From Mustelus asterias (lineage: Eukaryota), in the NCBI RefSeq assembly GCF_964213995.1, contig NC_135802.1:107012001-107076000 (forward strand): 64,000 nt of DNA, read 5' to 3'. The notes under the pieces are model-generated. The model saw only the letters and a program-made list of their open reading frames with translations, was not told the DNA's origin and searched no databases. The translations under genes and the position numbers were made by a program. Position 1 is the first letter of the stretch. Each line of letters opens with the position of its first letter. Positions 1 to 55,657 of this stretch are shown here, piece after piece.

Positions 1-719
1 TTGTTCAAAAGTCTAATGTAGGTCTTTGAAGAAATTCTAGGTGTATTACCCATTGTAGCGACCAATAAACCTCAAACCTCCCATGTCTGTGTTAAATTAG
101 CTGGAGCAGATCCATTTGTCCAGCCATATTTCATACACTCAGCTCCAACACAGGCGGGTTTACCCTTGTCATGTAAACTTCGCCATTCTGTTCAAAGGTA
201 AACGTGCGTCTGGACTTCCAAGCAAGCCAACACGTCTGATCTCGGATCACACTTTGCATCTGGCAATGTCAATGTGGTTGCCGCCTCAGTGTCCTTGGCT
301 CGAACAGATTAAAGATTAACCCTGGCGACGGTTTTACCTTCCTATTTAAACATATACATTTTAATACAATGATACATTTGCATGGCTGCAGGATATTTAA
401 CCGGTGACAGCAATGGTTGCTTCTGGTAGCATGGTAAAAAATTAAGTCCTGTACATAGCTGTTCTTTACCCAGACACATCCAAATGTAGTACCACATATC
501 GTGACTGCGACCTCTGAAGACAGAACTCTAAATTCAGGAAGGATTCTTGAACATCTTCAAGTAACTCTGCAGACATCTAGTGGAAAGACTGCGCCACTAC
601 AATGGCAAATACAGAAATGACATTGCTTGGTAATGTGAAATATATGTACATTACTTTTGCTCCTTCTGAATAGTATCAGAGATTATCCTTTCCCATGCGC
701 GTTTGCTGTTTAGCAGCGA

Positions 720-741
720 CCCCCCCCCCCCCCCCCCCCCC
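720..741. repeat. poly-C tract (C22)
   Basis: Directly visible homopolymer. Confidence 0.9.
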
Positions 742-3119
742 GACCCCGGTTATGATCGAGTTTTCTTCAGTCTCGTTCTTGTGGAGTCGCTGCTACTCGC
801 AGCATCTGAATGGTTCAGGAAAGCTCCTTAGCCGAGTCCAGCCGAGCCTGGGCTGAACATGCAGGGGTCGCCGTGCTTATCAGGAAGCTATAGGTTCTCA
901 CGACCCTCTAATCTCACTGGTCAAACTAAGACTGATACTAATGAACCAGACCTGAGGATAACCCGTTACCATTACTCATTTTTCACTCGGAACGAAGAAG
1001 TAATTAATAACCCCCTTCCTTAGGTCTGGTTGGGTGGAGGGGTGGGGGCGGGGGAGGGAGGGGGGGGGGCGGTGTTGGTTGCTGGCAGACCGAGTGACTG
1101 GGATTAATTTTTGATCAATTTCTCACGTTTGTAATCAGGCTAAGATTGAGCTAGAAAGATTCGACAAAGAGATAATGAACTATAAGTGCAAAACAAAATG
1201 ACTGGTGATATTTTGCTGAAATATATAGAGGCTAGATTATTGTTACTAAATGATTTGAAAATCATTCCACATCCGTAAAACGACCAAGAAAAGTCATGCA
1301 ATAAATATGCCCTTTCTCGTAGCCTCATTGCCGCTGTGCATAGTATCAAATATAACATACGTTGATTTTTTTTTAGTCCTGTACTGACTGATGCAAGTTA
1401 TCATGTATACTCTGAGTTAATTTTAGGTATGGAGGACTTCATGTCAAATATCTGCTGAACATTACACTCTCAGTCTACCTCCATGAAGTAACGGAGAACC
1501 CAGTTCACGATGAAGATCGTGTGTGGTATAATGTTGACAGAGTGTTGCATTTAGGCATCATAAATTGACAAAAAGAAACGTTTCAATCTAAAAGCGACAG
1601 TAAAACTTTATGTTGATACTATCCCCCACTCAAGTACCCAAAACAATATTAACAGATTATCACTTTACGACTTAATGTATGACATTATTTTTAAACAATT
1701 CACTGGGTGGGTGATGAAATGTTTGTTACTCTGCGAGTAACATCTTACTCGCAGGCTGGAAAAAGAGAAAATAAAGCCATCATCCTTTTTTTTAATGCTA
1801 CCTTTATCACTGAAACTTATAAAAGTCATTGAAGACTTTCAGAGGCAGTTGTGAACGAAAATGTGCAGATGTTTGTTTCGATATGTTTAGACAGAAAACC
1901 AAAGCCAGTCACAGAAGAGATAGTGTGTTTAAATATTCCGTGTCATCGTGTAAATTGTTCCTAAGCACCCGGTGAATTGATTTGAAAGGAATAATATTCA
2001 TGTATATATATAAGATCGACCATTCATTGAACATATACAAAATATCCTCCCCCAATGATTAATGATTTTTAAAGCGGAACGTACAGTTTGATTAAAGTAT
2101 ATTCTACTATACAAAATAGAAAGATGTTGAGGAAATATATGCACCTGTATTTATTCTAATACATTTTAGCTAATCGTTTCCGCACGCATATATGGCAACA
2201 GCAAGACATCAAATATCCTGGATGAAAATTCCAAACAAAAAGCAGTAAAAAGCACAAGATACCTTGATTTGGAATTCTTACACATAGCTTATCATCATAC
2301 TGTGTAAAATAACACCTACAGAAAACAATCTTTGTAAAGTATGTGCCATTGTCTAATATTAAATATATTACATATCATTTGGCACATAGCAGGGATATGT
2401 AACATAGTTACAGAGTGTAACACAAAATGATGTCAATGCAAATCATGTGCCATTAAAGGAGAACAAATAAATGCTATGTGCCTTTTTAGGGACTGTGAAA
2501 TTAAGTTTAGCAATTACAAGCCTGCACAATGCGTTACAATAAACTAACTTTGTGTTTAGATTTGACATTTAACTTGGCAAATGTAAGAAAGGTTGTTTTT
2601 CGATATTGTGGCACCAGTTATATTACAGTGCAATAGTATGTCTTTTCTTGTTTTCTGGTTGGCGTTGGTTAGTATATCTTCAAGTTTAATAATACTTTAT
2701 GCCCACGAGCCATGTATTTGGCCGTATATATGACTTCGTATAATTTTGATTTCATGTTCTTGCGTGTGTTTATTGCTGCAGGCTTGAAGAGATACTTGTC
2801 TTACTTGAATTTAAAACCATATTTAGAGTTTTAAGTGGCAGTTGTTTACAGAATGTTCATGGTTTGAGATCGTAAATTCAAGTTACCGCAAAACTGGCAT
2901 CTGCGCATTTATATGTGTACTGAAAATTTTTTTTTGTATTCATTGTGCAGACTTAACGCCTTTGGGCTTCAATAATCTAGGTAATATTACTATAGAACTT
3001 TATATACATTTAGTTAAAGCAATGGACATTTTCCACATATTGTAAGGCCATATATAATAAATAATAAACATAATAATGAAAATGGTCGAATCAAATAATT
3101 CGATATTGTTAATTTACAG

Positions 3120-3439
3120 CCCCGAGTGCTCATTCACCCTGGTCTGCCCACCCACGAGCACAGTACACACAGGGGAAGAAAAGAAATCATCATAGCAAAC
3201 TCCAGATTGCACAACTCTTTCGAGAGCTTTTGAGAATACTTGCTTGTTGACTTGAATACGATAACAGGAAAACAAAAAAAACTTCTGCAAAACTGGGGCT
3301 AGCAGAACAATAGGTAAAGGCTAGGATATTCAAAATGAAAAGAAGTTCCTGACGAGCGCAGATATAAGCATTTTCTCTGGATGGACGAAAATGGTTTCAA
3401 GATCAGTATCAAAAACAATAAAGGCTCATTCGCCGCTAG
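3120..3439 (+). pseudogene. HoxA14: HoxA14 pseudogene (degenerate split homeobox: remnants of exon 2, intron and exon 3)
   Basis: A candidate acceptor aatttacag ends at 3119. Manual translation gives TQGKKRNHHSKLQIAQL (3167-3217), a frameshift, RAFENTCLLT*IR* (3223-3264), a frameshift, then TSAKLGLAEQ* (3281-3313) followed directly by the donor GTAAAG at 3314. After about 70 nt comes WFQDQYQKQ*RLIRR* (3392-3439). This fits the Hox14-type homeodomain (KKRxPYSKxQIxELExAFExNxFLT...KLGLTERQ | VKIWFQNQRQKEKK) with an intron inside the homeobox, 6 kb 5' of HoxA13. Confidence 0.85.
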
Positions 3440-6400
3440 CAAACTGGAATAAATAAGGTGGCAGCGCTACAACCGGACCCTTACAATTAAATTATCTTTA
3501 CATGTAAATATTTCTGACAAATGTTTACAAATCGTACTAAAACGAAGAAATGACGTGTATTGGGCTTTGAAGCCGGAACTATGTAAACATTGTTTTGAGG
3601 AAGACAACGTTATCTGTAATAACATCTATTGGTTCTAAACATTTGAAATGAGAGTCAAATTTTGAATTGAATCTAAAATTTGCAAGTTTCTAAGTTCATC
3701 ATTGAATGTTTCGCGTTTTCTTTTTAGTCGGAACGATAGTTTCAGTTGATCTCTGTTGGAATATGTTAGAAGAGTTTTGATGAAAAGTGATTGGTTTTTC
3801 TAATCTTTTCCAAATATGTCACTAGAAATCTCATAATCTTTTTTATATTGTCGGTGATAAGTATATTGCAACACTTTCATGAACAATTGTTGCAATGCAC
3901 TTGACTTCATGCATTTTTTTCTTTTGCAACAATAGCATAACAAATATACATACACATGTACTGTGCATAAGAGTGGTGATAGAAACGAAAGCGTAAGTAA
4001 CTCACGCCAAAATGAAGAATCTAGTCAGATCCGTACCAACAATTCAATGATGTCACTTACTATAATTCAAGTACAGTGCCTTGTTCTTTAATTGTATTTG
4101 ATAATAGGACATACACAATTTTACTTGGATGATGTGCTGACATTTGTAAATGTGAGAAACGAAGTTAGTTCGTCTTCTAGTATATTTCCTGTGGGTTTGT
4201 GTCATTGACCAATGAAGCCAATGCAATATATATGCAAAATAATTGTATTATCACTGTATTTTGAAACGGCTTGATAATTCACGTGATATGGGCACATATG
4301 AAACATTGATAGAGCCAGCTATGCATATCCAATTCTTATAGGCACGCATTGTTCCTCAAGGATATATGATACACTTACAGAGTCTGTCTTACGCTGTTGC
4401 TCAATGGTATGGGTCAGGAGGCAGCATTCACAATGGTGACTTATGTACTCTAGATGTGCCAGAATTAAGAGATAAAATAAAAACCATATCCTATCTGTAG
4501 TGTAAGTATGTTTACAGATGTGTATGTTGTGATACTGCAAGTTGAGTAGCTCATGGGAAGCGGGGTTGATTAATCATTTTGCTAGATCTCAGTCGGGCTT
4601 CAGGGTTGAATTTCGAAATATTTCAGGAAAATGACATGGGATGCTTGGCAGGGCATATTGATTTATTGATTTGTGGAATACTAGTGTTAATCTAATAACG
4701 GTACAACATTTCCAAATTTGACTGGTATAATGGTGAACATGCTGCAATTTGACTATTTTAGGAAAATGGTCATTGCAATAATAAAATGCTTTATTATGAT
4801 TAATTTGGTTACAACCTAGAAATAATTCCAACATAAGAAATGCATCTGCAATAGAACAACATAAGAACATATAGCTTCTTTGTTGGTTCTGTTTAAGCTA
4901 TTATTTTACATTTTAACCTGTAGCACCCAAGGTTTGAATGAAGGACAGCTGGTCTTGGAGTATGAGTGGTGTTACTTATGATATGGCCCGTATGATAGGA
5001 AATCAAAAATCAAAACTACATCCATTAAATTATTTATTAAAATTAGTCATTAAATTGTTACATAGTATTTACATTGGTAAATATTAATTGACAAATGAAG
5101 GGAACAACTAAGGAAAGTATGGAATGCATGATGAATCGGTTTAAACACATTTCCTGGAGTATGTGCAGGTTATTTCCTTTTCAAACGTATTAGGCCGGCA
5201 ATCATACAAAACTAATCAGCAAATTTGAAAATAAGTGCAATATAAAGCCAAGCAACATTTCCACTAAGGGTTCTGGAAGTATTTTGACGTTAAATAACAA
5301 ATGTACTTAAGATAGTTCAGTTCTTTGACTCTATAGTCCAAACTTATAACGCCCACAGCAAAATATTTGAATTGTATGGTGCCATTGGACTAACATGTAG
5401 GAAAAGTTCAAGTTTTAACAGCTATACGGTTAATGCGCCGTTTCTAAGTTATTTAATTACAATTTTATGTTGAACTTTTTTTTAAAGCATATTGCTCTAA
5501 TGAGTCACAATTGATAATATATTCAAGGATACTCCATTGGACTAACATGCAAATCTTCACTCATAACGAAAATTTTGGAGGATTAAAAGACATAAGCTTC
5601 CTGGACCACGTAAATCGGGTCCATTTGGTGAAACTGACAAATCAGGATCTCGGTGATTCCAAAAGCCAGTACATTTTAACCCTATAATGAGGCACATAAA
5701 TGAATCAAAATACAAATTCTCTTTTACTGAAGAATAACTCTGGACAGGTTTTAGGCAGCATCAAATTAGGCACCAATATGTACAATCGTGCATTTATCCC
5801 ACTCAACGTGTTTGCAGGTTTACCCCAGCCACCGTTTTGCTTCCAGACACACAAAAAGCGCACCTATGCGATATTTATCAGCAATTCTAGCCTGGCAGAA
5901 TAATCACAACTAGATTAGTCGAGTGCTTCAGCATGGATGTTCTGTAGTACATTTCAACGCATATGTATACATATATAGGACCTTACTGAACGAAATAGCA
6001 GACAATAATAATTTTAAGAATGATTTATTTGTATTATCGTCCTGCAGATCATGAGCACATCCGGAATATTAGCGTACAGTACCTCTCTGGACAAATACTC
6101 CTCATTGGTGATGTCCTGATCTGTACGTAGTTTGAAACCAATTCTTGGAGATAACACTTTGCATCACATCATGTCCCTCAGTACTTTAGCGTAATGTGAT
6201 CCTCGACAGAATACCCCTACCTTTTCCAGTGATATTGACGGGCCGCCAGTGCAAACAGTCAGTTCAAAACAAGAGGTTTTGTAAACAGTGCATTTAAACC
6301 GGATGCAATGCTATATAATTTGCAATGTATCTTAAAACGACTGCATCCATTTCACATCCTTTTGCCAGCCATGCAGAAAGAGCTGGAAATGAAGACGGTA

Positions 6401-9669: not shown

Positions 9670-10318
9670 ATGACAGCGTCCGTGATACTTCATCCCCGCT
9701 GGATCGACACGGTGATGTTCGTCTACGATAATAGCTTGGATGAAATTAATAAAAACATGGATGGATTTTCAGGAGGGAACTTCACAGCGAACCAATGCAG
9801 GAATCTGATGGCTCATCCAGCATCCCTAGCCCCCAGCTCAGCCTACTCGTCGAGTGAAGTGCCAGCCTCTGGCATTGCTGAACCTGTCAAACAGTGTAGT
9901 CCTTGTCCTGCTGCTCAAACTTCGTCCAGTGCTGCCCTTCCTTATGGATACTTTGGGAGCAGTTACTACCCCTGCCGAATGAGCCACCATAGCAGCATCA
10001 AGTCCTGTGCTCAGCCCTCCACCTTGTCTGCCTATCCAGCCGACAAATACATGGACACGTCCGCCGGCGAGGAATTCACCTCAAGGGCTAAGGAGTTCGC
10101 TTTCTATCAAGGTTACGCGGGGCCATACCAACCGATGCCCAGCTACTTGGACGTACCTGTGGTTCCCACCATCAGCGCTCCGGGGGAACCGAGACATGAG
10201 ACATTATTACCCATGGAGAGCTATCAGCCCTGGGCAATTACCAATGGGTGGAACGGTCAGGTCTGCTGCTCGAAAGAGCAACCCCAAGCTACCCACCTCT
10301 GGAAATCAAGCCTGCCAG
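9670..10318 (+). CDS. HoxA13: Homeobox protein Hox-A13, exon 1 (CDS join 9670..10318,10752..10996; 297 aa)
   Basis: N-terminus [21 protein letters not shown], plus PG13 motifs [24 protein letters not shown] and HLWKSSLP. Donor CCAG|GTAAGT at 10319, phase 1. Confidence 0.97.
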
Positions 10319-10751
10319 GTAAGTACAGATAAACACAAAAGTCTTTCAACCAGCACGAGAAAGTAGCACAATGAAAGGAACAAAGCAGTCTGGTGTGTAA
10401 ATACATACGGGTAACTGGGATAATATATAACAGAGATTATCATTAAGAAATGCTATGCGTAATTCCCCAGCAGCAGAACTGTTATGTTAACACAAACTTT
10501 AATGTACAGTGTACTACCTAAATGTTATTTTGCAGGATTTTTCATAATCACTTCTCAATTCTCGCACTTTTTTTTTCAAAATTATAATTTCTGCTATGTA
10601 AATTTATTTGCCAAAAGTGCAGTCGATATAATATTCCCATGGCGCAATCTTGAACTTGACTCCGGCGACAGTCACCGTGTTTGAAGCCGATGGCCAGTGC
10701 TCAATGCCATGGATAATAAGGTGTGTTTTTTTCCCCCCTCTCTCTTCACAG

Positions 10752-10996
10752 ACGTCGTTTCGCATCCTTCAGACGCGAGCTCTTTCCGGCGAGGAAGAAA
10801 GAAAAGGGTGCCTTACACCAAAGTGCAGTTGAAAGAACTTGAGCGGGAATATGCCACCAATAAATTCATCACCAAGGACAAACGAAGGAGGATATCGGCA
10901 TCCACAAACCTCTCTGAGAGACAAGTCACTATTTGGTTTCAAAACAGAAGAGTCAAAGAAAAGAAAGTTCTGACTAAGCTGAAAAGTAACAGCTAG
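10752..10996 (+). CDS. HoxA13: Hox-A13, exon 2 (homeodomain)
   Basis: Acceptor tctcttcacag| ends at 10751. Encodes [72 protein letters not shown]. Stop TAG at 10994-10996. Confidence 0.97.
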
Positions 10997-13900
10997 TGCG
11001 ACAATCCCAGAAACATGCGGACTTCATCTGAAAAAAAATAAAAAATAACTGATCTCAGCCTGAAGAAAAAACCCCCAACCACAGTTCATTTTCTTGATGC
11101 TAGATTTGTTTTTTTTTCCTTTCTGCCTGCTCATTGCTTTCCCTTTTGAAAAAAAATACAGAAACACGTCAGTAAATTTCTCGGAGAGAGACATTGTATA
11201 AAGATTATGTTAAAGCAAGTTAAGGTTCAGCAGAAGTAAATCAAGCCCATTAATCAAGAATCTAGAGGGCTGCAATTTTGAAATGTAGAAAACAATGCGG
11301 GGTAGATTGTTTACTGCATAAAAATGTGTCCTTCAGAGGAATAAATGTACCAATTTGATTTATGCAGTAACCTTCACACAAAAGTCATTTAAGCACCTAA
11401 AGAAAATGTGTATTGCTGGAAAAGGTTCTGGCTAGCAAAAAGCTAGAGTGCATGATCAATTTTTTTCCTCAGGTAAACTATGGGATATATCGTGAAATGT
11501 ATAATAAAATGTATGTTTACGCACTACATTTTCTTTGGATGGGATGCGCTATCTCTAAAGATATTAATGTACAGGTAGAAAGAAGATTATATTCTAAATA
11601 GCAATGTATATGGGAAAGTAAATACGTACTATTCTAGCATTCTACATTTCGTCTTCTGTATATATTTAGGAGCATCCACGCTCTCGTAATTAAATAGCAG
11701 AGTAGATTGCCATTTTCTACAGAGCGGAAGAAAGATCTGTCTGCAAACATGGAACCCACCCCCTCCCGTGTAAATGAACTAAATATGAAGTCTTCTGTCT
11801 GCTTGTTATATTACCCACTTCACATAGCATTAGTCTTCACGCAGACTTAAGGCGCACAAGCTTTCTTCCTAAAGATGATAACATCTGCGTGCAATTGTAT
11901 TTTTTTTAAATACTGCATTATTATATCTGCATGCACCCTCCTGCTTAGTTAATATATACCAATAATAGTTAAAAAAATAAATCACGAATGATAATCATGA
12001 AATTAAAATGTCTTGCATTATTATTATGCAGCTGTTTAATTTGTATAACCTATTGTCTTTTTTCATCTAGTGAATTACTTGCATTACAACAGATTATTTC
12101 ACGAATAAAAGATGTTCATAAACAACAGCGTCTATTTTTTTGTTAAGAAACATGATACCAGCTAACAGCTTTTAAAGCAAAATGTAAAGAAATATGTATG
12201 GGCCAACTAGATTTATTCTTGATGTCAACCAGGCCGTTGATGTAGACGCTTAAAATACATTGAAATCATACTTTCGTAGTAAAGTTTTAGAAATAATCAA
12301 AACAAAATTGCTGTGAGCTAAAGGTAGCCGAGAATATTCCCTGCTGCTTTTTAATCGAAACCAGTAAACGTATCACGATAATTATTATAGAAACGCTTTT
12401 TGGAAGTGGATCCTTAACTTTATATTAGGATATGCTAAAAGTTTAAAGGCAATAAATTAGTCTCCATATTCTGATTGGAAATATAAGCTCTCTCTTTGGT
12501 TTTAATATGGAGGCAGGGCGTTAGGAGGGGGGCTTAAACCTTGACCTTGACGAAAACAGATAGTCTTTGACCTTGACTATTAACAGCTCATGAATAGTCA
12601 TGAAGTGGATTGGTAGAGCAAGTGCGCCATCTAATGTTAAATCTGAGGATATCCGTTTCTACGGGCTTTGCGCAAGCAAGCAAACATGATTATTTCAACA
12701 ATAAAAGAGCAAAGGGTGAACTGGGACCGTCAGATGTAGGTCAGTAACACTAATAATTAATTGTGCATTGTCCAAATTGTGGAAACAACTAGAGAATTTA
12801 TTTATGATGTTCCAATTTCAACAGCTCGTCAGGAATTATTTGCTTATTATGAATAATAAAACCTACAAAAACAATCACCAACTTCTGGTATTGCACTAGG
12901 ATTACAAGCGCGGTGTAGAATCAAAATAAAGAGCTATGGTAACGTGATTTGTAGATTGATATTCGCGGCTGGTTTAAATTTCAGTTAAATTTCTAAGATA
13001 GCTAAGAAAGGGGCAACCAAACTGATCAGATAAAGTTGACATAGCTTTATTTTAATGACATATGATATATTTAATGATATATTTGATCAGCCTATAACGT
13101 GCCCGTTCACATTTACTTCTGCATCACTCTATCTCAATGCCTCTATCTGTATCGTGTCTATCTGCTCCTGCTTATCTGTTGGTCAAGTTTATCCATTCAT
13201 ATTCATACTCGTATACACTTTCCTGATCATGTAATTAAATATTTCAATGTGCAATTTCACAAAACTAAAGTAGTCGCTTAGCTCCGCTTTTTCGTGCTAG
13301 AGGTATTAATGACATTTTGCAAGAAATAACCCGAGATTTTAAGAATTGTTCCCAGATATTTAAAAGGTATGCAGTCTACATCATCTCCAATTTAACGTGT
13401 GGTTAACTGAATGTGAAATTCCACAAGGTTTTTTTCTTTAGAAAGTAGAAGCATGCCTCGATCTGCATTTGTACCTTTGCATCAACCAAACATTTATTTA
13501 AAAATACCTAATTGCAGATGAATTTCATAGACATGAAAATAGTACTGTTTTAAACGTGAATATTGTAGAACTGCGATCTTTGCACTTATTATTTTGCGTC
13601 CAACCTAAGCAGGCTTGCTTATGTAAACAGTAGATTTTTCTTCCATCTATTTCTAATCAATGTTAAGTGTGCAATGCACATTCCAAAACAATTTATTTAT
13701 TTTCACTTATGTCCTTACTTAACACAGCCCGAGCCGCAACCCTGGAGATGTCCATCTGAACAGTGAAAGCTGATTTGTCAAAATGTTAAGGGATTAAAGA
13801 ATTCTACATTCATCACATGACACATTCGAGCCAATCACGCCATCCTCTTGTAAAATCCGTTGAAATATTTGTTGGAAAGTACTTGAGGAGAACCACCCAC

Positions 13901-16900
13901 ATTCTCTCTGATCAAGGCAGGTCCAGTGATACAATATCATTGTTTTTTAGGTGCTCCGAGTTGAAGTATATGGAAGATGTCTATTTACACGGAAATGGAA
14001 GAAAAATAGTTAATCAGCGTCTATTAGTTAGGGGTAACCATTGTTGATTGGTTTTATAGATGGATCATCAATGCTTTCCAAACAAGTTAGTCAAGTACAG
14101 AATCTTCTTTCAGCGTGTTTTTTCTTGTCGTTCTTGGGCTTTAAGTAAAATAGGCTAAAGTTAAAAGATGAGACTGAGCAGTCAATGACACATCTCTGAT
14201 TACTTGAGACATTTCGTGTTATTAATTTATTGCAAGATAACGTTTCAAGTAAAATTAATTAAATTGCCAATATTGCCCTTATGGCATAAGCACAGCAAAA
14301 CAGAAAATGCAATCAATTGGAACAGACATTCTGGAACATAATCATTTAGCTTTCCATTCTGCCAATCGCTCTGTGCCAATGCATTCATCCTGAACTGTGA
14401 ATCTCTATTTACAGTAAATACATGTACCTTTTATGAGTACAGTGGCGATCACGAGCGATTAAACTAGTTTATTGTAAAAACAATAATGCATTTGGATCAT
14501 TGAATTTGCGCTGCAGATACCCTCGGTAATGGTCTCCTGTGCAGTCCTCGCGGAGAAGCTCACACATGTCACTTCAGAGTGCCATAAAAATATAACATTG
14601 CGATAGAGATACACGAAACGAAACATTATTAAACGAACTTTTAAAGACTTTATGCGCTGAATCATCTATAATTATAGCATCGCCTATTATATGTTGATGT
14701 ATTCGGGAACATTGGAAAACGAAACAAAGAAGTAATTGTCGAGAACTAAAGGCGTATTAAGACCAGGATATGTCTTCAATGTCGTTTTGACTTTCATTTT
14801 GCTGGTATTAACTTCACTTCCTTAGGGGGGAGGAAATGCAAAAATATGTGCCTTTGTTTCTAGTAAATTAAGTTGGAGTCATTGTTCAATTTGCAGTCGA
14901 TGTGTTTATTGATCTTGATAAAAAATAGTTTATTTGATTTATTTTGCTTCTTTTTTTTAATGCGGCTGCAGTCACACTGTCATTTCTGAGATCGTACATC
15001 ACTCAGTGAAGGAAATATATATATATATATAAAACACGACTTATGTGTTGTGTGTCGTGTTAACTTCATATCATACAATAAATTTATCCAAAACTTAATA
15101 TTTTTAATTATGGGAACCATGGAAGTGCGCACTTAATGATTAGTGTGATCAGTGCAATACAGCATTTATCTAAAATACCTGACCTGACTTCAACGATGAA
15201 CCACAGGCTGCTAAAAGTGGATGTTTAATACTATCCGCACCAACGGCCATTGACAGACCCCCGCCCCACCCCAAAGAAGACTGCATATATTTGCTTGAAA
15301 AGGTTATTTATAATTTTTAAAATAAAATTTCGCCAGACAATTTATGCAATTGTTGAATTTACTTTAAAATATGCAACCAACTGCGATTGAACCGCGGCGA
15401 ACTTGTTTTAATAAATGGAGTGATTTTTTTGTAATATATCTGGTTCCAGTTAAATCAAATCTGCTTGGATGTACATTGGTTTCTTTTGTTTCTTTCGATT
15501 CATTTCTTTCCTGCCATGTACAATAGAATATAGCTAGAATACAAATAATAGAGTATACTAGATCATGGGTCGGAAAAATTAAATCCTTCAGAAATTAGAT
15601 ATTTAGGAACGCATATACTTGCTAATGCGCCCAACGTAAAACACAAATATAGAACTGCATTTTAAAAAACCATGCCATTAATGCAATCTCAAACATTGAA
15701 TTTACAGACGACCTGCCAACGTATATTTGCGAATATTGATGACGTGCGTGCATATTAATGACAGAATATAAATATTATTTCATATGTGTGCTTATACATA
15801 TCGACAAACTAAACGGGCAAAATCCATGCTTAGATATTACATATAATAAACGATTTTATTTCATATTGCTATATAGATACATGGGTACACATTCACAAAC
15901 ACACACATATAAGACAGCAAGTTAATAACAATTGAAATAATATTTAGGGCAGGTTATGCTGCGGGCATTTTGAGTCTGAAATGTTTCACTTCATCTGAGT
16001 GTTAAGTTACAAAATAACACGAGGGATAATTCAAATATTAGCTTTGCTGCATTTCTGTTGCGTTTTGGACGAAAATATATTTCATTTCGCAGAAGTCAAA
16101 ACAATAAAATGACTAATTGCAAACGTTCCTAAGTATATTCTAGGTAACTATGCATTTATGTAATGATGTCGCTATAATTCAATTTAACGCATTATAATAT
16201 CACACATTCAAATATACCCTTTAATGCCATGTAACACATTTTGTACAATATAAAATTCGAGACTTCCTTCCGTTCATACGTTCGCCTATTTCACTTGCCG
16301 GACTTTCTATGCTGGACATAAAATAAAGATTACATTTAATTATCTGTGTTTGCACCTCCAATTCTGAGATTGCAATAGTGATTGCATGTCACGAAAGCAA
16401 AAAATATATATATTCCATTCTTAAAGTGCACTTAATTTCTTTCACCAATTGTGATATTTTCAATCAGCTTGAACTATCTTTCTCTGTATGGTGGCAGCTT
16501 CCAGCAGTATAATGCTGTTCAATTGTTTGCCGAAATAACGCGGGGCAAAATGTTCTCTGCAATCAAGTTCGAAGATACCGCATTTTGAAATCCGTGATCT
16601 CATTTATTTCTCTGCCTGTAGAATACAATATCGTAGAATGCTTTTCCCCCCTTTGTTAGTGTGATTTGTTTCAAATAGTTAATGAATGCGCAGTAAAACT
16701 TTAGCTTTTCACCTCTGCTTGGGCAGATGTAAGCAGATAGAATATAAGTTCCAGTGGCAAATTCGTTGACAGTTATGTGAAAACACGCTCTTAAAAAATG
16801 AAGCAGCATATCACCATCTGAACTTTGCCCATTGACCTCAAAACATTTATTAAGTTGCACAATCAGAAATTATATATAACCGCATTCCGAGTCACTGTCA

Positions 16901-19900
16901 TCCAAAGTAATTTACATATCTCATTAATAAAGCATCAGAAAGAACACGCATGCAATTCATTAATTGTAGCTTTCATTAAAATGCAATTCACTCTGTCTCC
17001 TCTGGTACACACATTCGCGGTTAGTTTTCTTGTTGACATTGAACACAAATTCACTATTTCATTGTTATTCCATATGTTCTTTCAGTTGAAAGGGGTTCAG
17101 TCATTTTGTCACATTGCAAGTTTAGTGCGCACACATGCGACGTGTGTGGGTCCTGAATGTTCATCTGGGAGACAACTGTATCACACCACGGCTTGGAATA
17201 TGCTAACCTGACAAAGATTAGGTGCAATTAGAAGACTGCCGCTTTTGTGTTTGTGTGGGCGAGCCGACTGGGGACTGGAAGGATTTTTTAAAAAGGCTTT
17301 AGGAACACACCGCACCTGTGCATTTTGCAGCACCGGCTATTTTTGAAAGATTGCGGATTAGAAAGTTGGAAGAATCCACCCGAAACACACAGGAAAATAG
17401 TTCGGTTGCTCGTGCCTAAGGATTTGCTGCGTTTGGAGGTGAGTACAGCGCTTCTTAACGGAGAAAATTCTGAAATTCCAGGCTGTGTTCTCCTCGCCAA
17501 GTTCAAAGATCTTCCAAGTTCAAAAGCGACCAGTTGGAGTGAAACTCTGTATCCCTTCTCGCTATTCCAATGTTCATGGCTGCTTGGCCTGGCTCTCATA
17601 TTGCATTCGGGAAGAGGGTCCTGCTAACACAGAATGGCATTTTACTGTTTGTTTTCATGAATGGAAACACTGCCGAAATTTATCAGCAAACTATCATTGA
17701 ATTTGCTACGACTGCATATTGTTCTGGCTTTTTTTTTTGAATCCCGATATTGAAGTACTAAGCCGAAAAGATGCTGCTGCAGTGAAGGGTATAACTCCAT
17801 TTTCTTTTTATTATCGTGCCCACCAAGTTCAAAAACATGACATGGACTCCCCCACTCATCTTAAATTAGCATTTCGTGTAAAAGTGTTACCGGGATACCA
17901 GGCTCAAAATAAAACCTCACGCGATAAATTGAAAAATACGAGCAAGCGAAACAGCTTTCACGTGCATTTGTAAATAAAACACCCGTATTAAGAAGGTTAT
18001 ACCTAAATTATTCAGAGGGGAAGGTTCAGGATTAATTAATGTCTCGTTTATTTTGTCATGCAGTGTGTTAAAAAGGCACCGACACAGCGTGTTGTACGTG
18101 ATGTATTGGGTAGCTTAACATTTTGGGCTCCGGATTCCATTAAATTATTGAAATAATTGCATCAAACTTTGCAATAAAATATGCGAAAGAGTTTCAACAA
18201 TTTTATTGGGAAAATATACAAGAGTTAAAAAGAACTCGGAATGAAACTAGTACATATTTACCAGAACAAATGTGATAGATTCCGAATTGCACATGGCTAC
18301 ATCCAAAGATAGATATAGATACATAGATATGGATACAGGCACACTCTCCTAGTGTGGTATCATTTCAGAGAAAAAGAAGGAACGTCCTCTCAAATTACTC
18401 AAAGGTGTAAAATGCTCGCTAATAATTTACAAACCGTGTTACCTTCACGCCAATCCTTACTAAATGTGCCTATCTCTGTGAGACTACTACTGTTATACTG
18501 AGGACAAAGATAATGTTAGAAAAACAAGTTTGAAGTATTAATTTTGCTCAGTTGTAGATCACAATGTGCTGTGTACAATCTCTCATTGCAGAACCATTTA
18601 AATAAATTTACTGTGGCTCAGCTAAAATAACAATGGGACAATACGATACAACTCTGGCTTAGTTTTCATTTTCAAATACGACCCATTTGGAGGCTGTGCC
18701 TTCTATTATGTGGGACGTTTTAAAATCTTGAATTAAAACGTTCTTGATCAACACAAGGCGTTTTTATTTTAGAAAAGTGGTCGTTTCTTGAAGTACTTTC
18801 TCTTGAATGAACTTTCTGCAGAATTTCCGAGACACTCGGCATAAAAATGGCCGACAAGCAACCGTTGTCTTGTCCTTGCCACTGAACAAGGCCACAAAAC
18901 AGCCACCCACATAAAAAACAAGGTGCATTTTCGTTCAAAGACGCGCACTTTTCTGGGGCCGATATATGCAGTTTGGATTCTGAGATTCATGTTTTTTTCA
19001 GTAACCAGGGGAAAATAATATCATTGCAGAGCTCCCCACAACAGTAACTCACCTCCCCCCTCCCGCCCCCCCCCCCCCCCCCGCCCCACGGTTACCACCT
19101 CCAAGAAAGGGTTTTAGTTTGATGTTTATTCCATTTCACACCATTGATTTCAAATGTGGAATGACGTTTCCTTGAAAATATATGAACGTTTTAATACTCG
19201 CAGCTCGCCCAGCCGATTTCAAAGTCAGCGAATGTTTGAATCAATAATTATGATAAAGTATTACAACCGTGTGGAGGAGTTCGGTTAAAAGGCAGCAACT
19301 ACGATCTAACAATAACTCCCGTGGAATTTTCCATGTTATATGTTGAGGTTGATCAGGAAATGTTTACTTTCACTTATCCATGAAGATGCTCTTCTGATTT
19401 GCAACCTTCTTTTTCCAAAAAAGTGATGGTGCAGCAATAAGTGAAATCATTCCATGTTAGAGAATTGGAATGGGCTATAATATAGTTAAGTGCTTTTGTT
19501 TTGCCAGACAATTAAGACAGATGTGTCTTCATTTGCACCGTGATAAGCAACGTGCACAATGTAATTCCTGGGAAGAATTAAAGAACTAATGCGAATGCAA
19601 TTTCCTGCAAAAAAAATCTGTAAAGGACAATATGGCTGGCCGTTTCCAACCCGTATTGATCACATTTAGGGTAACAATAAAAATCTATTGGCCACAAATA
19701 AAGTTATCAACTTTTAACCGGTAGTTAGTGATATTTTAGAATGAATGACTCCATGCACGACGAATTATATTTTAATTCAGCACTTCATTACATTACAATT
19801 AATGACACGATCGACTTTACAAGTGTCGACTGGGCTCGCCCAAATGTTTATTTTTCTTCCCAAGATGAACATTTGACTTAAGCTTCAATATGGCTTCAGT

Positions 19901-22900
19901 TTCATTTCACACGATATAGCTCGCATCTTTAAAAAGTACATTTCGCAGGCTTGTGGAACATTTTCTCAGAGTTGAAGTTCAATGTTAAACAGGCTGCTCG
20001 CCCTTAAACTGCAAAGCTGTCAAATAACTCAACTGAAGACTTTCTCTTACCACAATCTCATTTCGGTGGTTGCTTTTTTTTAAAAGAAGAAAAAAAATGC
20101 AACTTTAAGAAAATAGTTTTAAATGCGATTCAGTTTCTGATAATAACTGCGACAAAGCTTCGAAGTACACATCAGTGTGCAGAAATTCAGCTTCATCCGG
20201 GTCTCAGCCCTCCCGTTGAGTTGGACTCCTGCAGGAAAATAGCCTACGCCGCAATAATTCACTGATGTCCTTAAAGTTCTGTATTTATATTGCATTTCAT
20301 TCACATCGAATATCAGCCGAATGTCCGCACTGTATGCCTGATCTTACAACAACAAGGTAGGTCAACTTCATTTCTGGAACCATCTCTTTAGTTTCACATG
20401 ACCACCTTCTTGGAAATAATTATACGATCAAAGGCTAGAAAATAAAGAGACGAGTCAATTTGATCTAGAATCGGTAATTAAAAGCCATAGTAAAAAAACA
20501 GCGATCTTTGAATAGAGGGCTGATAATTGGGAAATGCAGATGGATAGAAAATGGCGAAGCGACTAAGATACTGAAGAGATCTTGGCCCATGCATCGGCTT
20601 TTATTTAATCGGAAACGCAATCGCCAGCTTCCCTTTTCGTTTGGGTGGTTATTAAATAACTGCACCGTTCCTTTTTCTTATTGTCTTTGAAACATCATCG
20701 GCAAACTGCGTTAGAACACACAGCAGCATAATTACTGAGAATTCAGCCGGGTCGCAGCGAGAGAAAGGAAATAAACTAGATTTTGCTGAACGCGTAGTAA
20801 AGACGCATAATGTAGAATTAAAAACTTATTCTTCCTAAAACTCAGTCTGATTTTATCAGACAAAGCCGCGTCCTTGTCTCTTTTGGGGAACGCCTGATTG
20901 CTCACATTAGCTGGGCATGTCAGGGATTCCATGTAGGTGGCGTCTTCAGCTCACCCCTGGCCCGCTATCATGCCTATTCCGGGGTTCTGGTGAAGCTGGT
21001 TGTCAAAGCTGCTGTTAAAACCGCAGGTCGATCTAAACCGCCTGCATTCGGTTCTCAGAGGCGCCCTTCTTTATTATGAAGAGAACTGTACATGTGCTGG
21101 AATTTGACCATTCGTACAGCGACAGATGGTGCCACTATCTTTCGGATGTTCTTTCTACCCAACAATCCCAAACCTTTGAACAAATCCTGCATTAAGTAAT
21201 TTTGAACATGGGGTTTGCTAAATAAACCTATTCTGTTTCAAAACCATAATGCACTATTCTGGTTATATCTTGTTCTTAAACATTCAAATTTGCAGAGATT
21301 TGCATATTATGGCTTTCCTGTATCAGTCTGTCTAGTAATGTAAATATATTTTCTATCGCGATTTTAAATAACCCTCTGGAAGTGCTGCAATGCAAAGTCT
21401 ATAGACAACGATGGTTGGGCTGCATGTATAGTCTCTATAATTGATATTGCAAAGCCTTATTATAAAATGATGTGCGAATATATAAATATGTTAATATTCT
21501 CAGTGGTTTCAGGGTCTACAAATGTTGTATTGTCCGCTGGCCTTATTTGTATAGCGTTTGAATGCAGTTACAGCAGGTCAGAAAAATTAGCTGGTTGATA
21601 CAGGGATGTTGAAGGCTTTGCATTTCATTGGTTTCTATTGATCATAACGGAAGAGTGAGAAAAGCAAGATTAAATTGTCAACTCCTTACCAAAAAATGTT
21701 TCCTAGTGGAGAGATTTTTTTTCAGTGCATGGAATTTAATTTAAATAGAAGGTCTTTCTGGCAAATGTTTATGGCAAAGGTCCTTTTTCCCAGGAAACCT
21801 GTTTGTTTTGGCACTGCGCAGTTGTTTTTGGAACATCAAAAAGCTAATTTGTGACAAATTCTAAGGCAAAGTTTAACTCCAGCTCTTTTCTACAGTCCCA
21901 TTCTTTTCAGCACATCAGGATTCCTCGCATAGCTTTCAGACTTGTTGCGTGTATTTGAATCAAAAAGATTGCTACACGGAGATACTGTACTGAAATAAAA
22001 TGCGATTTATTAGCGACTTTTCAATGAATGCAATCCTCACTCAGCTAAAGCTATTCAAAACATCTCAATTGTGCACTAAATCTGAACCTGGTGCTTATTC
22101 AGTTGTCCTTGGTGACACTTTATAGAAATATGGAAAAATGCACCCATGGCCAATGTCAAATAAAGCAGCATTCCCTTTATCCGCTTTTGCTCACGTCTGG
22201 CTGCTCCATCCTAAACTTATTTTCAATGGGGGCAAGTGTTCGTTTTGGAAGAACGCATTCACACAAGTTCTGCCTGAAGTGCGAATTTGGCCCCGCGCAT
22301 TGAGATCTTTTTTGACGCTGATAGTTCTCGGTAGCCGCCTAAGCGGATAACTGGTTTATATAATTTTGGTGAGTGGTCGAAGGGTTTTTGCATGTGGTGG
22401 AGTTGAACGTGACCATGCCCGCTTGTGAGAAACAAGAAGCAGCATAGCAATCTTAAGGGGGGAAAACATCCTAGTCACCTCATACATTTGGCAGATTTGT
22501 GTGCATTCAATTTTTTTTAGAGGAGAACTGATCTAACATGGATTTGGAAACTGTCAAAAACGCAAACAAGCGTAGGTCTATGTCGAACTTGTGGAACGGT
22601 CTAACTTTGCTTCTCCACGTCTCTGTGTGCTCTCATCTTCTTCAAAGAGAGAGAGATTATTTTGCATAAAGCACGATTTAGCCATTTAAAGATTGCACTC
22701 TCACCGTTTTATACTTCAGTAAAATCTCTTATACAGCTTTAGTCATTATTCATTAGTGATTTCACACATTCTGTGCAGGCGAACTAGGTTTGCTTTCATT
22801 AAAATGGCAAGGAGGAGAAAGCAAAGGGGATTATTTGCCAATAAAAAAAAATGCCGAACAATATTCTGGCAGAACCAATATACGTGAGATAGGTCAAAAA

Positions 22901-23154
22901 CCGCGCTTTCTGGAAAATAGGCAGTTTTTTGTTACATTTCCACTGCGGAAATCGTTACGTGTTATTTCCACGTCCACCCTCGCTTCTAATCAGCTTGTTG
23001 GAGCGACGTGAAGTGAATGTGCCAAATGCGTCTCTGGTGTGAAGGCTGAACACCTTCACAGTATTATTCGAGCTTTCATTCCCCTCTTTAGAAATGTGCA
23101 GAGCTTAGATGTAAAGAGCTTTGCGCTGTTGGTGCGAGGGGGGGAATCCAAAGT

Positions 23155-23351
23155 GATGCATGTCAATTTCTCCAGGCATCTGGTCACATGACTAGCTTGT
23201 CCCTGCGATGTATGGAGATACATTTCCACGTCAGCTTACGTTTCCAAATTTTTACTCCGCGGATCAGCTTCAAAGAGGCAGCAGCATCTAAGGACCATGT
23301 TTAGCTGTGCGAATGCAAGCTATTCTTGCGCTAGGGGACCCCAAGCAAGCG
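23155..23351 (+). promoter_or_regulatory. HoxA11 proximal promoter / 5' UTR block
   Basis: GGTCACATGAC E-box-like motif and TTTCCACGTCAGCTTACGT...CTTCAAAGAGGCAGC, recognised from memory as the conserved Hox11 5' leader. It lies directly upstream of the CDS. Confidence 0.65.
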
Positions 23352-41082: not shown

Positions 41083-41166
41083 AACTGATGTGTGATTTAG
41101 GTAGTTTCATGTTGTTGGGGCTCAAGTCTATCTCTACAACACGAAACTGCCTGAATTACTGCAGTT
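41083..41166 (+). ncRNA. mir-196: mir-196 precursor hairpin (HoxA-linked locus, positional orthologue of mir-196b); mature 5p at 41098-41119
   Basis: TAGGTAGTTTCATGTTGTTGGG is the mature miR-196 sequence. The 3' arm CTACAACACGAAACTGCCTGAA (about 41134-41155) pairs with it, and AACTG/CAGTT closes the base. It sits in the canonical position between Hox10 and Hox9. Confidence 0.97.
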
Positions 41167-48230: not shown

Positions 48231-51200
48231 CACACGAGTTAGAATATTTCTGAGAGAAAAAAAAGACTCATTCACAATTACAATCGAAATAGGCCCTACT
48301 TCAGAAAGACTATTATGTACATTTTGTCATGCCATTAGCACAAATTATTCCTTTGCCAGTTCTGGACTGCATATGGTGGGTAAAATGACTGATACACTTG
48401 TTAGTTGGGAACCAAAGAGGGAGACATTTACGGCAAGGTTAAGTATGTGGCTACGGAATCTACCTTACTTTACATGAAAACTACCTTTTCTTAATCCACC
48501 ACAACTCAGTGTGGACAGTAATTCAGTAATACTGTACTAGTTTAATATTTACTTGTTTTACATGCAGCAAACCAAGCTGTCTATATACTTGAATCCTTGT
48601 GTCCATTGTTGTGATTATCTCTGTGACTGGGCCTTTGTGCTTGGGCGGTGTCCGAGTAAAGATCGTGTAAACAAACAAAAGAAAAATCTCAATTTAACTC
48701 AGGATGTTTAATATAAAGATAACAGGCTGTGTAGTGCATATGAAATGTTATTTTCGTGGTGAACTTGGAACATATACTGTATTATTTTCACTGTGAATGA
48801 ACCTGTAGAAACTCCAGGCTTTATGCTGTCCTTTGTGAGACTGAGTAACGGCCTTGCCCGGGGTGCATGACGATTGTGTTGTTCTTCAGAAATTATATGA
48901 AACTGATTTGCATAGAATGCTAATATAAGTTGTATTTCAAAGAGCAGCGCTGAGCATACTGCTACACGATACTCTTGTCTGTTGTGGAAAATAAAAGCAC
49001 GAATAAAGTTCTCAGACACTTTGTATTTATCGGTGTTGTGGTGCAAAGAAAAGTGTAAAATTTGGTTTAAAACTACCTATATGTATAACTAGTAACTACC
49101 TATGTTTTGTGTGTAACTGTCACCCTTAAAAATTGTTTTGACGCATTTATGCGATGGAATAAACAAACAATATTGTCAATAAATGTAATGTGTACAAGGA
49201 AAAAATCTGGGTGCAATAGAAAGAACATATACCACTAATGTGTTTTAAATGGGGGTTATCTTTAGACCTGTAGAGCTAACACATTTACACTTGTGTACAC
49301 GTTTGAAATGATTACCTCGTGTCATATTGACCAAACTATACTGTTTGTAATGAAATGTCATTTTATTTGTTGTCTAATAAAATATATGTTTGACTACATA
49401 TAAAATATGCTCTTTGTCTCTGAATCTCAATGTCTGGAACTCCACGATTACATTCGCATTTCACCATCAATGTTGGATATTCTAAACTCACTCGTACTGA
49501 GCGGAACTATATTCAAAATATAAACAAGCTCCGCTTATAGCATTTTAAATACTGTACACGAATTAACTTTCAGGCGAACAGCAGAGTTAATGAAATAAAG
49601 TTTGTCACATTCATGTAAATAATCCTATGTCTTTACTCGCATTAACAGAATGTCGCCAATATCAACCCCAACTAATTTGCAACACTTTGCCGATGTTGCT
49701 GAAAATCCACTTTTGGATTTTACCCCAAGTTCTGACATTGAAAACGCAGCTCAAAGTTTGGATATTCCTTAATAAATAACGTTTGGATTTTCCTTAATAA
49801 ATCCTTAATAAACGAATGTTATCACCACAGCTGACATGACATGACTTAACAGGGGTAACTAAAATTAGAATGAGATTGGGGTTTCTGAAAAAAGGGGAAG
49901 AAAATAGAAAGTGTGATCGTAGAACGTTGGCTGGGAAGCGGATCTGATGACAAAGATCCTGCATGCGTTTGAGCTTAACGCCCAGTTATCACCAATTAAC
50001 CCGAGAACGTGCAAAAAAAACTGTGCATTAACAACTTTTATCTGTGGTCTGGCCATGCGCCAAGGCCGTTGGTTATTTATATGATTTGTTATGTGCGACT
50101 TATCCAAGTAATGCAGCATTCAGCTGGAAGTGGAAATGAATAATCTTGAGGTGCTTGCCCGTGTGAAGATCTCCAAATGTTTTGGGATTTCATCGCATTA
50201 TAAAGAGGTAAATAATTCGAAACATTCGCAATGGCACAGCTCCCTGCCGCCATTTCTTTAACTAGTCAACACAAAGGGGTCGGATCCTTAGGAAGTAATG
50301 TATATTAGTCTAAGGCGCCCTACCGCTAACAAAAAAAGTTGTGTACGACTTGGCTATTTATGCAACTTCCTTTCCAACTGTAAGATCCCTAGTAACTTTT
50401 TTAAGGCTCCGAAGACAGTTTGGATAGATTTAGTGGAATGCAACTGATTTGGAAACTGGGCAGAGAGGCCCATGTAGTTAGAAGTCTTGGCAGTGGCTGT
50501 CGTTAGTAAAATCCAGAGTGGTGTACCGCAATAAAAGAAAATGACTGCTGTAAGCGTTTATGGGGTGTAAAACGCTGGAGGTTAAGGGCCGAAGTGCATA
50601 AACACGACACCGAGTATTCTTCAGTATCTGGCAGCAAACACTCGCACAGGGTTGCAGTCATTATTTTTTATTATTAGGCTATGAAACAGTTGTTAAATTG
50701 AACTTCTATTTTTAATTTTTTAGTGTTCAGTCTGAAGGGTTATAATGTTGTGACGCCCTCTGTTGTTGCAGATGGAACTTCAAAGGCTAAACAGGGAGAC
50801 TTGCAATAAAATGAAGGGTCTGGCAAGCCGTCTGGAATTCGGGTTTTAATGAGTTTACAACTGTCCAGCTACAATCAGTATTTTTCCAGAGAAGGCGATC
50901 CATTTGTTTTGTCTGGCTGCCTAGACAAAAGGGTCTGCGGAAATAACGACCTTTATTAGTCTCGTCCTTAACGTGGGCCCTTCAAATATCTCTTTACTAA
51001 TTTATTGCGTCTAGTGGAAAGGTAACAGATCTTTAGTTATTTTGAAACGTGGTTTGGCGCGCTTTGAAATTAAGCTTGATAGTCATAAGAAAAAAAAAAG
51101 TCAAACTAGATATAGGTATCAGTTTCCGGACAGCGCGAAAAAAGGTTTTTGTGCATTCTGACAGCGATTTCTTGGTTGCAGTTTTCATTCATGGTCAGGA

Positions 51201-53022
51201 GATGGCAGTGTTAAACCACAGAAGAATTCAAAAAGAGTGCCGCCAAGCTGCCAAAAAGTGCAATAACTGCTATAAACTGGGATTTATTTGTACAGTAGGT
51301 TGTAAATAGGATGAAAACACCTACCACAAATGACACTTGTAAAAATGGACTGAGGTCGATGGAGTTTATTCATTTTGAATCCATCAACTCATTTGTGGAC
51401 AGATTAATTCCGCTTGACACGGGGTTTAGAAATCCATTTATACTCCAGTGTTTTATTTTTAATGTACAATAACGCGATTTAAATTGATTATCTCCATTTT
51501 CGTTCCCCATTCCACTCAGTTGTTTGCAACAGGGGATAGCGATTAGAAGTTGAGTATGTGAAAGAGAAGTGACGTGAGCTATTTTATATCTATCCGTACA
51601 TACAACAGCATATAACATATACAACTACGTGCGTGAACGCGCACCCACATTCATGAACACACATCCATCCATCCAAATGTATGTACAGGCATACGTGTGC
51701 AATCGTATACTTAAATCTATTTGCATGCACTCTTGTTATCCTGAAATTCCCGTTGGAGACCAGTATAAGTCAAATGTTAAATGTGGCATATCGTGAAGTA
51801 GAAACATAATTTAACACTGTGAATGTTTCTGTATATTTTTGATTAGGCTTCATACTGGTGTAAATTATAAAATTAAATCTATTGATGGAGTAAGTAGCGT
51901 TATGAATGGCATGTAGTGAAATACCCGTTTGATGAAAAGTTCTGAATAGTAACTTTTAGAAATTTCATCAAGTCGTTAATAACTTAGGCACATGTTGTAA
52001 TGTAACCAAAGAGGTCAGTTTGAAGGACGCTTGATTATTTCTTTTAACCATGCTCACATTATCTTTCCACATTGAGTCAAACTACGGCACACATACTGAA
52101 CTGTACACATCTTTCAATGGGAACATCCTGTAAAAGTGGCCCCATATTGGGCTTGGCATGAATGAAAGCGTCGGTCAAATCCAAAGAATGTTTTGCTTGG
52201 TTGAGTGCCTCCTGATTTATTTATATAAAGTCAGCTAAAGCTTTCTCATACATCGCAAAGTCCAAACCGCGTTGCAGCTTTTTAAAAATTGCATAATAGT
52301 TTATACCTTCTGAAACGAAAACAGGTGGGTCCTTCACGTTATTATAACGTGGCGTATTGGAGTTAGATCATTCATGCACTTGCCATTTTGTGAATGATAA
52401 CGATAAATTTCGTGATATATGATACAAAACAATGATACACGGATTCATTAGTCTACATAACCAAACTTCAGTGCAATATGCACAATTTTATTTCCAATGT
52501 AGCTCTGCATACAGAAAATCAGTATATTTCGTGTCACAGTGTAGAATTAAGCCCGAAATTAGCTAGAGTCTATAGAAGATTCTATTTCCTGCATAGAAAG
52601 AATCGGGAGCATTTACAGCCAGATAATAGATTCGGAACCATAGCAAATGACGTGTAACGAAATCGAGATATATGTATTTGAAAGTATGCTGACAGGAATG
52701 ATGTACATTATTATGCAGTGGCAATTCAAATATGTGCTCGCTGAGCACTGTGTTATTTTCTCGATTGAAATGTAGGAATCCCGACTGCAAATTAGGATTA
52801 TCTGTTACTATGCCACATAATTGTAATGGTTCACATGTGTTCGTAAGCAATTTAAAATAACAATACAGCAATCTGCTCTAAATACATAGCAAAAAAAGTA
52901 TTAGATATACAGCAGCATCTGGAAATACAGAAGAGGCTCAGATTTCCGAACTTTAGGAAACTGTCATTATAATTTAAATTTCTGCAAACATAATATTGTG
53001 AGGCAACTAGTGTTTATCTGTA

Positions 53023-53080
<58 letters not shown>
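53023..53080. repeat. (ATCT)n / GATA-type microsatellite, about 14.5 units
   Basis: Perfect tetranucleotide repeat over 58 nt. Confidence 0.95.
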
Positions 53081-55489: not shown

Positions 55490-55657
55490 TGCGATTGGGC
55501 AGCTGGATCACATGGTCAGGTCACGTGAATAGGAATAAGTCGGGCCGAAGGAAAATGGGTGTTTGGTGTAAATCGGGGGTGTAATGCTGCCATATATCAC
55601 GCTATCTCGTAAAACCGACACTGAAGAGCCTTGGCCAACAAATCACCAGACAAAATT
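55490..55657 (+). promoter_or_regulatory. HoxA7 proximal promoter / 5' UTR
   Basis: ATTGG at 55494-55498, CACATG at 55509-55514, CACGTG at 55522-55527, a CTCGTAAAA posterior-Hox site, and the Hox7-type leader CAAATCAC...AAAATTATG. Confidence 0.65.

Follow-up and report, generated by a model that had tools for sequence, protein, structure and literature searches.

A probable HoxA14 pseudogene upstream of HoxA13 in a cartilaginous-fish HoxA cluster

The intron that interrupts the homeobox of Hox14 genes falls at codon 44/45, and the HoxA14 gene of the horn shark has been reported as a pseudogene. Group-14 Hox genes consist of three exons, carry the helix-3 motif WFQNQR and are located between Evx and Hox13 (PMC3509897), and the junction at which their homeobox is split is conserved (PMC8423624). 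The position of this intron is likewise conserved and is the same as in Abd-B (PMC3707753, PMC8423624). Apart from group 14, the relevant passage of PMC3707753 describes a homeobox intron only for lamprey Hox13-beta and some amphioxus genes. The peptide ENRFLTPE is listed as a group-14 primer motif (PMC3038165 Table 1).

Group-14 Hox genes have been kept or lost as a patchwork across vertebrates. A sequence-only reading of the DNA studied here had assigned the locus to a known class, the HoxA14 pseudogenes, and such pseudogenes are on record in the elephant shark, turtles and crocodilians. The elephant shark pseudogene that it named is stated in the pertinent section of PMC3707753, which names both HoxA14 and HoxB14 as pseudogenes in this species. 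The HoxA14 pseudogene of Callorhinchus milii resembles our relic in being a dead group-14 gene in the HoxA cluster of a cartilaginous fish (PMC3707753). Group-14 pseudogenes have been described in several cartilaginous fishes, and independent losses have been suggested (PMC3509897). For the little skate and the horn shark, the passages of PMC2746220 that deal with this gene report no Hoxa14 and do not discuss remnants.

The further claim that HoxA14 was lost in tetrapods is out of date, as four caecilian genomes have an intact copy, while turtles and some crocodilians have a Hoxa14 pseudogene (PMC11600591). The HoxA14 genes of coelacanth, lungfish and caecilians share with the relic the place in the cluster, the split homeobox and a Gln at homeodomain (HD) position 52 (PMC3038165, PMC7875771, PMC11600591). 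However, these genes are intact, whereas in the relic the frame is broken, two codons have become nonsense, the second acceptor is missing and Asn51 and Arg53 are changed. The turtle and crocodilian Hoxa14 pseudogenes are similar to the relic in that exon remnants with frameshifts and stops remain at the HoxA14 locus, but they represent an independent amniote loss and were found by alignment to caecilian Hoxa14 (PMC11600591). The hoxd14 pseudogenes of bowfin, gar and sterlet are also dead group-14 genes in which the split junction and helix 3 are recognisable (PMC8423624, PMC7269910), but they lie in the D cluster and the relic in the A cluster. In addition, the WFQNQR motif is complete in bowfin hoxd14, which is still transcribed and spliced; the relic keeps four of the six residues and has lost the second acceptor. 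Gar hoxd14 is not transcribed, according to the section of PMC8423624 concerned with it.

To place the locus, we use the term window for the whole 64,000-nt stretch of DNA that was analysed. A six-frame scan of the window identified five intact homeoboxes, all on the + strand, and the first exons of these five Hox genes were also located. The main features of the cluster are as follows.

9670 to 10996, + strand: HoxA13, intact, the gene nearest the relic (exon 1 9670-10319, exon 2 10752-10996), named by protein identity
23352 to 57223, + strand: HoxA11, HoxA10, mir-196, HoxA9 and HoxA7, in this order, named by gene order and motifs
10793, 25224, 39055, 48024 and 57044, + strand: homeobox codon 1 of the five intact genes, from the six-frame scan
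41089 to 41162: mir-196 precursor between HoxA10 and HoxA9 (78.6 bits), expected at that place

HoxA11, HoxA9 and HoxA7 were named on the basis of their order in the cluster and the primer motifs tabulated in PMC3038165. Exon 1 of HoxA13 matches HoxA13 of the ray Mobula birostris at 95% identity, and the matches that follow, from bony fishes, are at 79-80%; exon 2 is 97.5% identical to the same ray protein. For exon 1 of the third gene, HoxA10, the best match is HoxA10 of the shark Stegostoma tigrinum at 95% identity, and the next match is at 65%; the protein matches for both genes are 90% cluster representatives. The six-frame scan found no group-12 or group-8 homeobox in the 64-kb window, and the gene order 13-11-10-9-7, with 12 and 8 missing, is that of HoxA clusters. 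Judged by the protein matches and the gene order, the window is thus the HoxA cluster of a cartilaginous fish, probably an elasmobranch and less probably a chimaera.

A decayed homeobox is located at 3120-3439, on the + strand like the cluster and 6.2 kb 5' of HoxA13. Evx1 lies beyond the limits of the window, and the placement of the relic was judged from the HoxA13 side. The relic can be divided as follows.

3118 to 3119, + strand: intact-looking splice acceptor AG of relic exon 2, in phase 1 by splice-phase comparison
3120 to 3313, + strand: relic exon 2, 194 nt, with 16 pre-homeodomain codons and HD codons 1-44, with indels and a stop
3170 to 3217, + strand: HD codons 1-16 (N-terminal arm and start of helix 1), in frame and without a stop
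3218 to 3283, + strand: middle of the homeodomain, HD codons 17-34, indel-damaged and of uncertain register, delimited by the lengths of the pieces
3284 to 3313, + strand: HD codons 35-44, the last being a nonsense TAG at Gln44
3314 to 3382, + strand: probable homeobox intron of 67-69 nt, with donor GTAAAG and without its acceptor AG (now TGG at 3378-3380 or AT at 3381-3382)
3383 to 3439, + strand: relic exon 3, with codons 45-47 unrecognisable, Trp48 at 3392, Gln52, TAA at 3419 and TAG at 3437
3448 to 3453, + strand: AATAAA, a possible polyadenylation signal or a chance occurrence in AT-rich DNA

The three homeodomain-like segments in shifting frames that the sequence-only reading had described are all found where it had placed them, on the + strand. 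The exon-2 acceptor is in phase 1 relative to the homeobox frame, likewise in all five intact Hox genes of the window, and 11 of the 20 bases upstream of the AG at 3118-3119 are pyrimidines, compared with 12-20 in the five intact genes. The damage to the middle of the relic comprises 2 extra nt at 3218-3222, a deficit of about 3 nt at codons 28-31 and 13 extra, A-rich nt at 3262-3283; the corresponding pieces measure 5 bases for codon 17, 9 bases for codons 28-31 and 22 A-rich bases for codons 32-34. The second piece, in a shifted frame at 3223-3264, covers approximately codons 18-27, and its register was set by eye, the automatic path being slightly different. At least four stops had been claimed and four are present, but the clean one-base nonsense changes are limited to two, TAG at 3311, one base from CAG (Gln44), and TAA at 3419 (codon 57), one base from Lys. 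The other two, TGA at 3253 and TAA at 3262, fall within indel-disturbed sequence. The first stop after the domain is TAG at 3437-3439. Asn51 and Arg53 are both changed.

One possible explanation for such a degraded sequence is a chance resemblance to a homeobox in AT- and purine-rich intergenic DNA, and the standard searches point that way. Pfam gave no homeodomain match to the relic in three single frames, the PDB search with single frames gave no match at E<=10, and the Atlas search with single frames returned no homeodomain, only unnamed low-score leads. The word-based protein search produced no match from one candidate, and the relic was absent from the nhmmer matches obtained with the homeobox DNA of the window. 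We scored both strands with a codon-decay profile built solely from the five intact homeoboxes of the window. With this profile, only 6 of 127,906 positions score at least as high as the HD2-16 piece, namely the five intact genes and the piece itself, which is thus the best non-gene match. Scores as high as those of HD35-44 and HD48-60 are found at 65 of 127,936 and 12 of 127,918 positions, respectively, while HD18-27 is weak (2092 of 127,936 positions). The three rare pieces, HD2-16, HD35-44 and HD48-60, lie in the correct order and spacing within 270 nt, behind a phase-1 acceptor. The homeobox origin of 3120-3439 is secure because three rare pieces occur in order within so short a distance.

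The whole region scores 24.8 bits, which is reached by none of 340 other tiles of the window (the top tile scores 24.4) and by 1 of 2000 shuffles (Gumbel p 3e-3). In frameshift alignments to single proteins, none of 150 shuffles scored as high for A13 or for A11, compared with 12 of 150 for A10, 18 of 150 for A9 and 71 of 150 for A7, and the A13 score was exceeded by 2 of 690 real tiles. The single shuffle that beats the generic profile score and the two tiles that beat the A13 score are on the side of chance. Given the rarity of the individual pieces and their ordered arrangement, we consider a chance resemblance extremely unlikely. The best other tiles for the codon-decay profile are at 23189 (minus strand, over HoxA11 exon 1), 6139 and 42626. 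No remnants of group 12 or group 8 stood out in 11000-23300 and 48300-55600, where no tile reached the score of the relic.

The relic homeobox appears to be split. A GT donor at 3314 directly after the TAG codon, followed by an intron of about 70 nt without an intact acceptor, had been proposed from the sequence. The GT is present at this place, but by itself it is no evidence for an intron, because the codon for Val45 begins with GT too. The spacer contains seven AG dinucleotides, but none at 3381-3382, where the acceptor would have to be. Trp48 at 3392 is 69 nt later than in an unbroken homeobox, and the displacement occurs directly after codon 44. Helix 3 anchored at 3392 scores 13.3 bits, which none of 2467 random anchors reaches. 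Read straight on from 3314, it is at chance level, with a score of 2.7 bits that 194 of 2467 random anchors and 42 of 563 GTAA-led sites reach. Under default penalties, the best path continues helix 3 from 3314 without an intron. Among 12 pattern matches, the relic is the only non-gene TGGTTTCA-type match that starts with an exact W-F-Q.

The spacer also carries a branch-like CTGAC at 3349-3353 and eight pyrimidines at 3371-3378; this pair occurs at 0.25% of 127,780 background positions, by criteria chosen after viewing the sequence. A length of 67-69 nt is at the short limit for vertebrate introns. We read the spacer as a probable intron of 67-69 nt with a dead acceptor. A duplicated helix 3 as the origin of the spacer was rejected, since 1378 of 2000 shuffles are at least as similar to exon 3 at the DNA level. 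The first part of the intron, 3314-3351, is loosely like a second helix 3, with a similarity at chance level.

We next consider the paralogue group. When two published group-14 motifs are put into the profile, the score increases from 24.8 to 28.3 bits; the same nine columns filled with residues of the window genes give 20.8 bits for A13, 25.0 for A11, 23.0 for A9 and 25.4 for A7. Group 14 outscores A13 in all 18 parameter sets and ranks first in 16 of them, and none of 2000 shuffles reaches the group-14 profile score. Over eight ungapped columns, group 14 leads all five window genes, by 12-25 bits. The helix-3 motif keeps four of the six WFQNQR residues, Gln52 among them, and is three base changes from WFQNQR versus four from WFQNRR. 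Gln52 (CAG) is a single CpG-type change from Arg (CGG) and could derive from Arg. For ENRFLTPE, whose region is indel-damaged in the relic, no match within three mismatches was found; its edit distance of 7.5 was equalled by 80 of 600 random tiles, and the A7 motif was closer, at 7.0. Taken by itself, this motif therefore does not exceed chance. Hox14 homeodomains presumably agree with the relic at further positions, which we do not count as evidence.

Since the relic adjoins HoxA13, it could be a dead tandem copy of a group-13 gene, HoxA13 or a different one, whose helix 3 received an insertion. Among the five window genes, A13 requires the fewest base changes, 46 over 49 codons, and a lamprey Hox13 gene has the same intron (PMC3707753). 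However, at the DNA level the relic agrees with HoxA13 at 71 of 147 bases, and at 17 of the 49 third positions, which does not exceed the identity seen between different groups. The relic differs from HoxA13 at positions 13, 19, 20, 24, 26, 52 and 54, which are fixed in 89 of 89 named HoxA13 proteins (91 were examined, 89 of them with a homeodomain), and at positions 38 and 39, which are nearly fixed, and several of these differences take two to three bases. Tyr20, Lys24, Ile26, Arg52 and Val54, by which group 13 can be recognised, all differ, and the homeobox is interrupted. The A13 residues also gave the lowest score of the sets tried. A recent copy of HoxA13 was rejected on the low DNA identity and the changed fixed residues, and a group-13 origin in general is very improbable.

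Codons 6-13 fit the HoxC12 motif well, and here the published motif is better than any window gene by 8-11 bits over five columns. This fit, and the absence of group 12 from HoxA clusters, would agree with a HoxA12 remnant that was moved or copied 5' of HoxA13 and later received a 69-nt insertion in helix 3. Such a remnant would be in the wrong place, as group 12 belongs between 13 and 11, and the passage of PMC3707753 on homeobox introns does not list vertebrate group 12 as having one. The group-12 helix 3, WFQNRRMK, fails on the relic, in which codon 52 encodes Gln and codon 54 would need three changes to give Met. The two shared columns that differ favour group 14 by 2.2 bits. We regard a group-12 origin as highly unlikely.

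Neither the codon-44 intron nor WFQNQR is unique to Hox14, because Dlx genes also have an intron after codon 44 (PMC3199776) and a placozoan Lim1 protein and its relatives carry WFQNQR as well (PMC9495127). The relic might then be a non-Hox homeobox remnant, Dlx-, NK- or LIM-like, inserted at the locus. Against this, its K-K-R arm and helix 1 agree with those of posterior Hox genes, its exon-2 phase and pre-homeobox length are Hox-like, and its location and strand are exactly as expected for HoxA14. These features make a non-Hox origin barely credible.

Assignment to group 14 is the best reading of the sequence. It is based on the position of the relic, the anatomy of its intron and two short motifs from the literature, with modest residue evidence; the cluster position and the split homeobox weigh most. 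The HoxA cluster, the place 5' of HoxA13, the split homeobox and Gln52 all check out, in agreement with the initial proposal of a HoxA14 relic from a cartilaginous fish. We propose that 3120-3439 is a non-coding, unitary HoxA14 pseudogene, with exons 2 and 3 left at the 5' end of the HoxA cluster, and give this reading a probability of about 0.9.

The relic is unable to encode a homeodomain. Its lesions include frame-breaking indels, TAG at 3311, TAA at 3419 and the loss of the second acceptor, and because several of them are independent, an assembly error is unlikely. There is no second HoxA14 in the window, whose intact homeoboxes are only the five described above. Changes have affected 12 of the 23 codons that are invariant in the four posterior genes of the window. 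The 14 changes at about 56 constrained sites correspond to 25% (95% interval 14-39%), which is an upper bound because some changes may be ancestral group-14 states, and which gives no dating relative to the shark-chimaera split. The state of the relic indicates that the loss of HoxA14 is old.

HoxA14 may have become dispensable after the genome duplications, with another group-14 copy, HoxD14, remaining. HoxD14 is retained in cartilaginous fishes (PMC5054437, PMC1845163). HoxA14 would then have decayed neutrally in place over a long time, and the relic may still be recognisable because these clusters are slow-evolving and resistant to rearrangement. The relic is most likely without a function of its own.

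By analogy with bowfin hoxd14, it might instead be transcribed from the 5' end of the HoxA cluster and partly spliced, and serve HoxA13 in fins or cloaca as a regulatory element or a non-coding RNA, a reading that we consider unlikely. The exon-2 acceptor, the GT donor and the downstream AATAAA at 3448 are still present, which is compatible with transcription but does not support it. In the same reading, if the lesions were shared with the elephant-shark copy, they would show that HoxA14 was lost once, at the base of the cartilaginous fishes, as opposed to independent losses (PMC3509897).

For exon 1 of the HoxA14 pseudogene, a tblastn search with 120 HoxA13 proteins gave no match 5' of 3083 among the best 25 listed, and a codon-use scan of 1-3119 yielded unproven candidates at 686, 832 and 984. 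At 712-1084, 2 kb 5' of the relic, a poly-C tract at 719-741 and a G-rich tract at about 1040-1070 form 34-nt inverted arms. The 300 nt between the arms are richer in GC. In a frame free of stops, at about 832-1020, codon use is Hox-like (12.0 bits), while elsewhere the 99th percentile is 5.4 and the maximum 16.0. This stretch may represent the lost exon 1, a G4 site or a conserved element.

In the literature covered, most subscription papers being outside its scope, we found no description of these particular lesions, and the passages of PMC12952989 and bioRxiv 10.1101/2025.02.26.637739 contain nothing on HoxA14. The relic is real but ordinary, as such remnants are already known in cartilaginous fishes. 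Its significance is modest, and a specialist would expect such a remnant at this place without surprise. The mapped lesions nevertheless provide a character set that can test one loss versus several across sharks, rays and chimaeras. For annotation, the point is that Pfam and PDB searches with single frames and nhmmer all miss the relic.

Repeats at the relic locus are not informative, and a CTCF-like core (one mismatch allowed) does not occur in the whole window. Only four tandem arrays are present in the window. A perfect (ATCT) microsatellite of 14.5 copies is located at 53023-53080, between HoxA9 and HoxA7. Between the relic and HoxA13, an exact 16-nt direct repeat occurs at 5382-5397 and 5534-5549, 152 nt apart.
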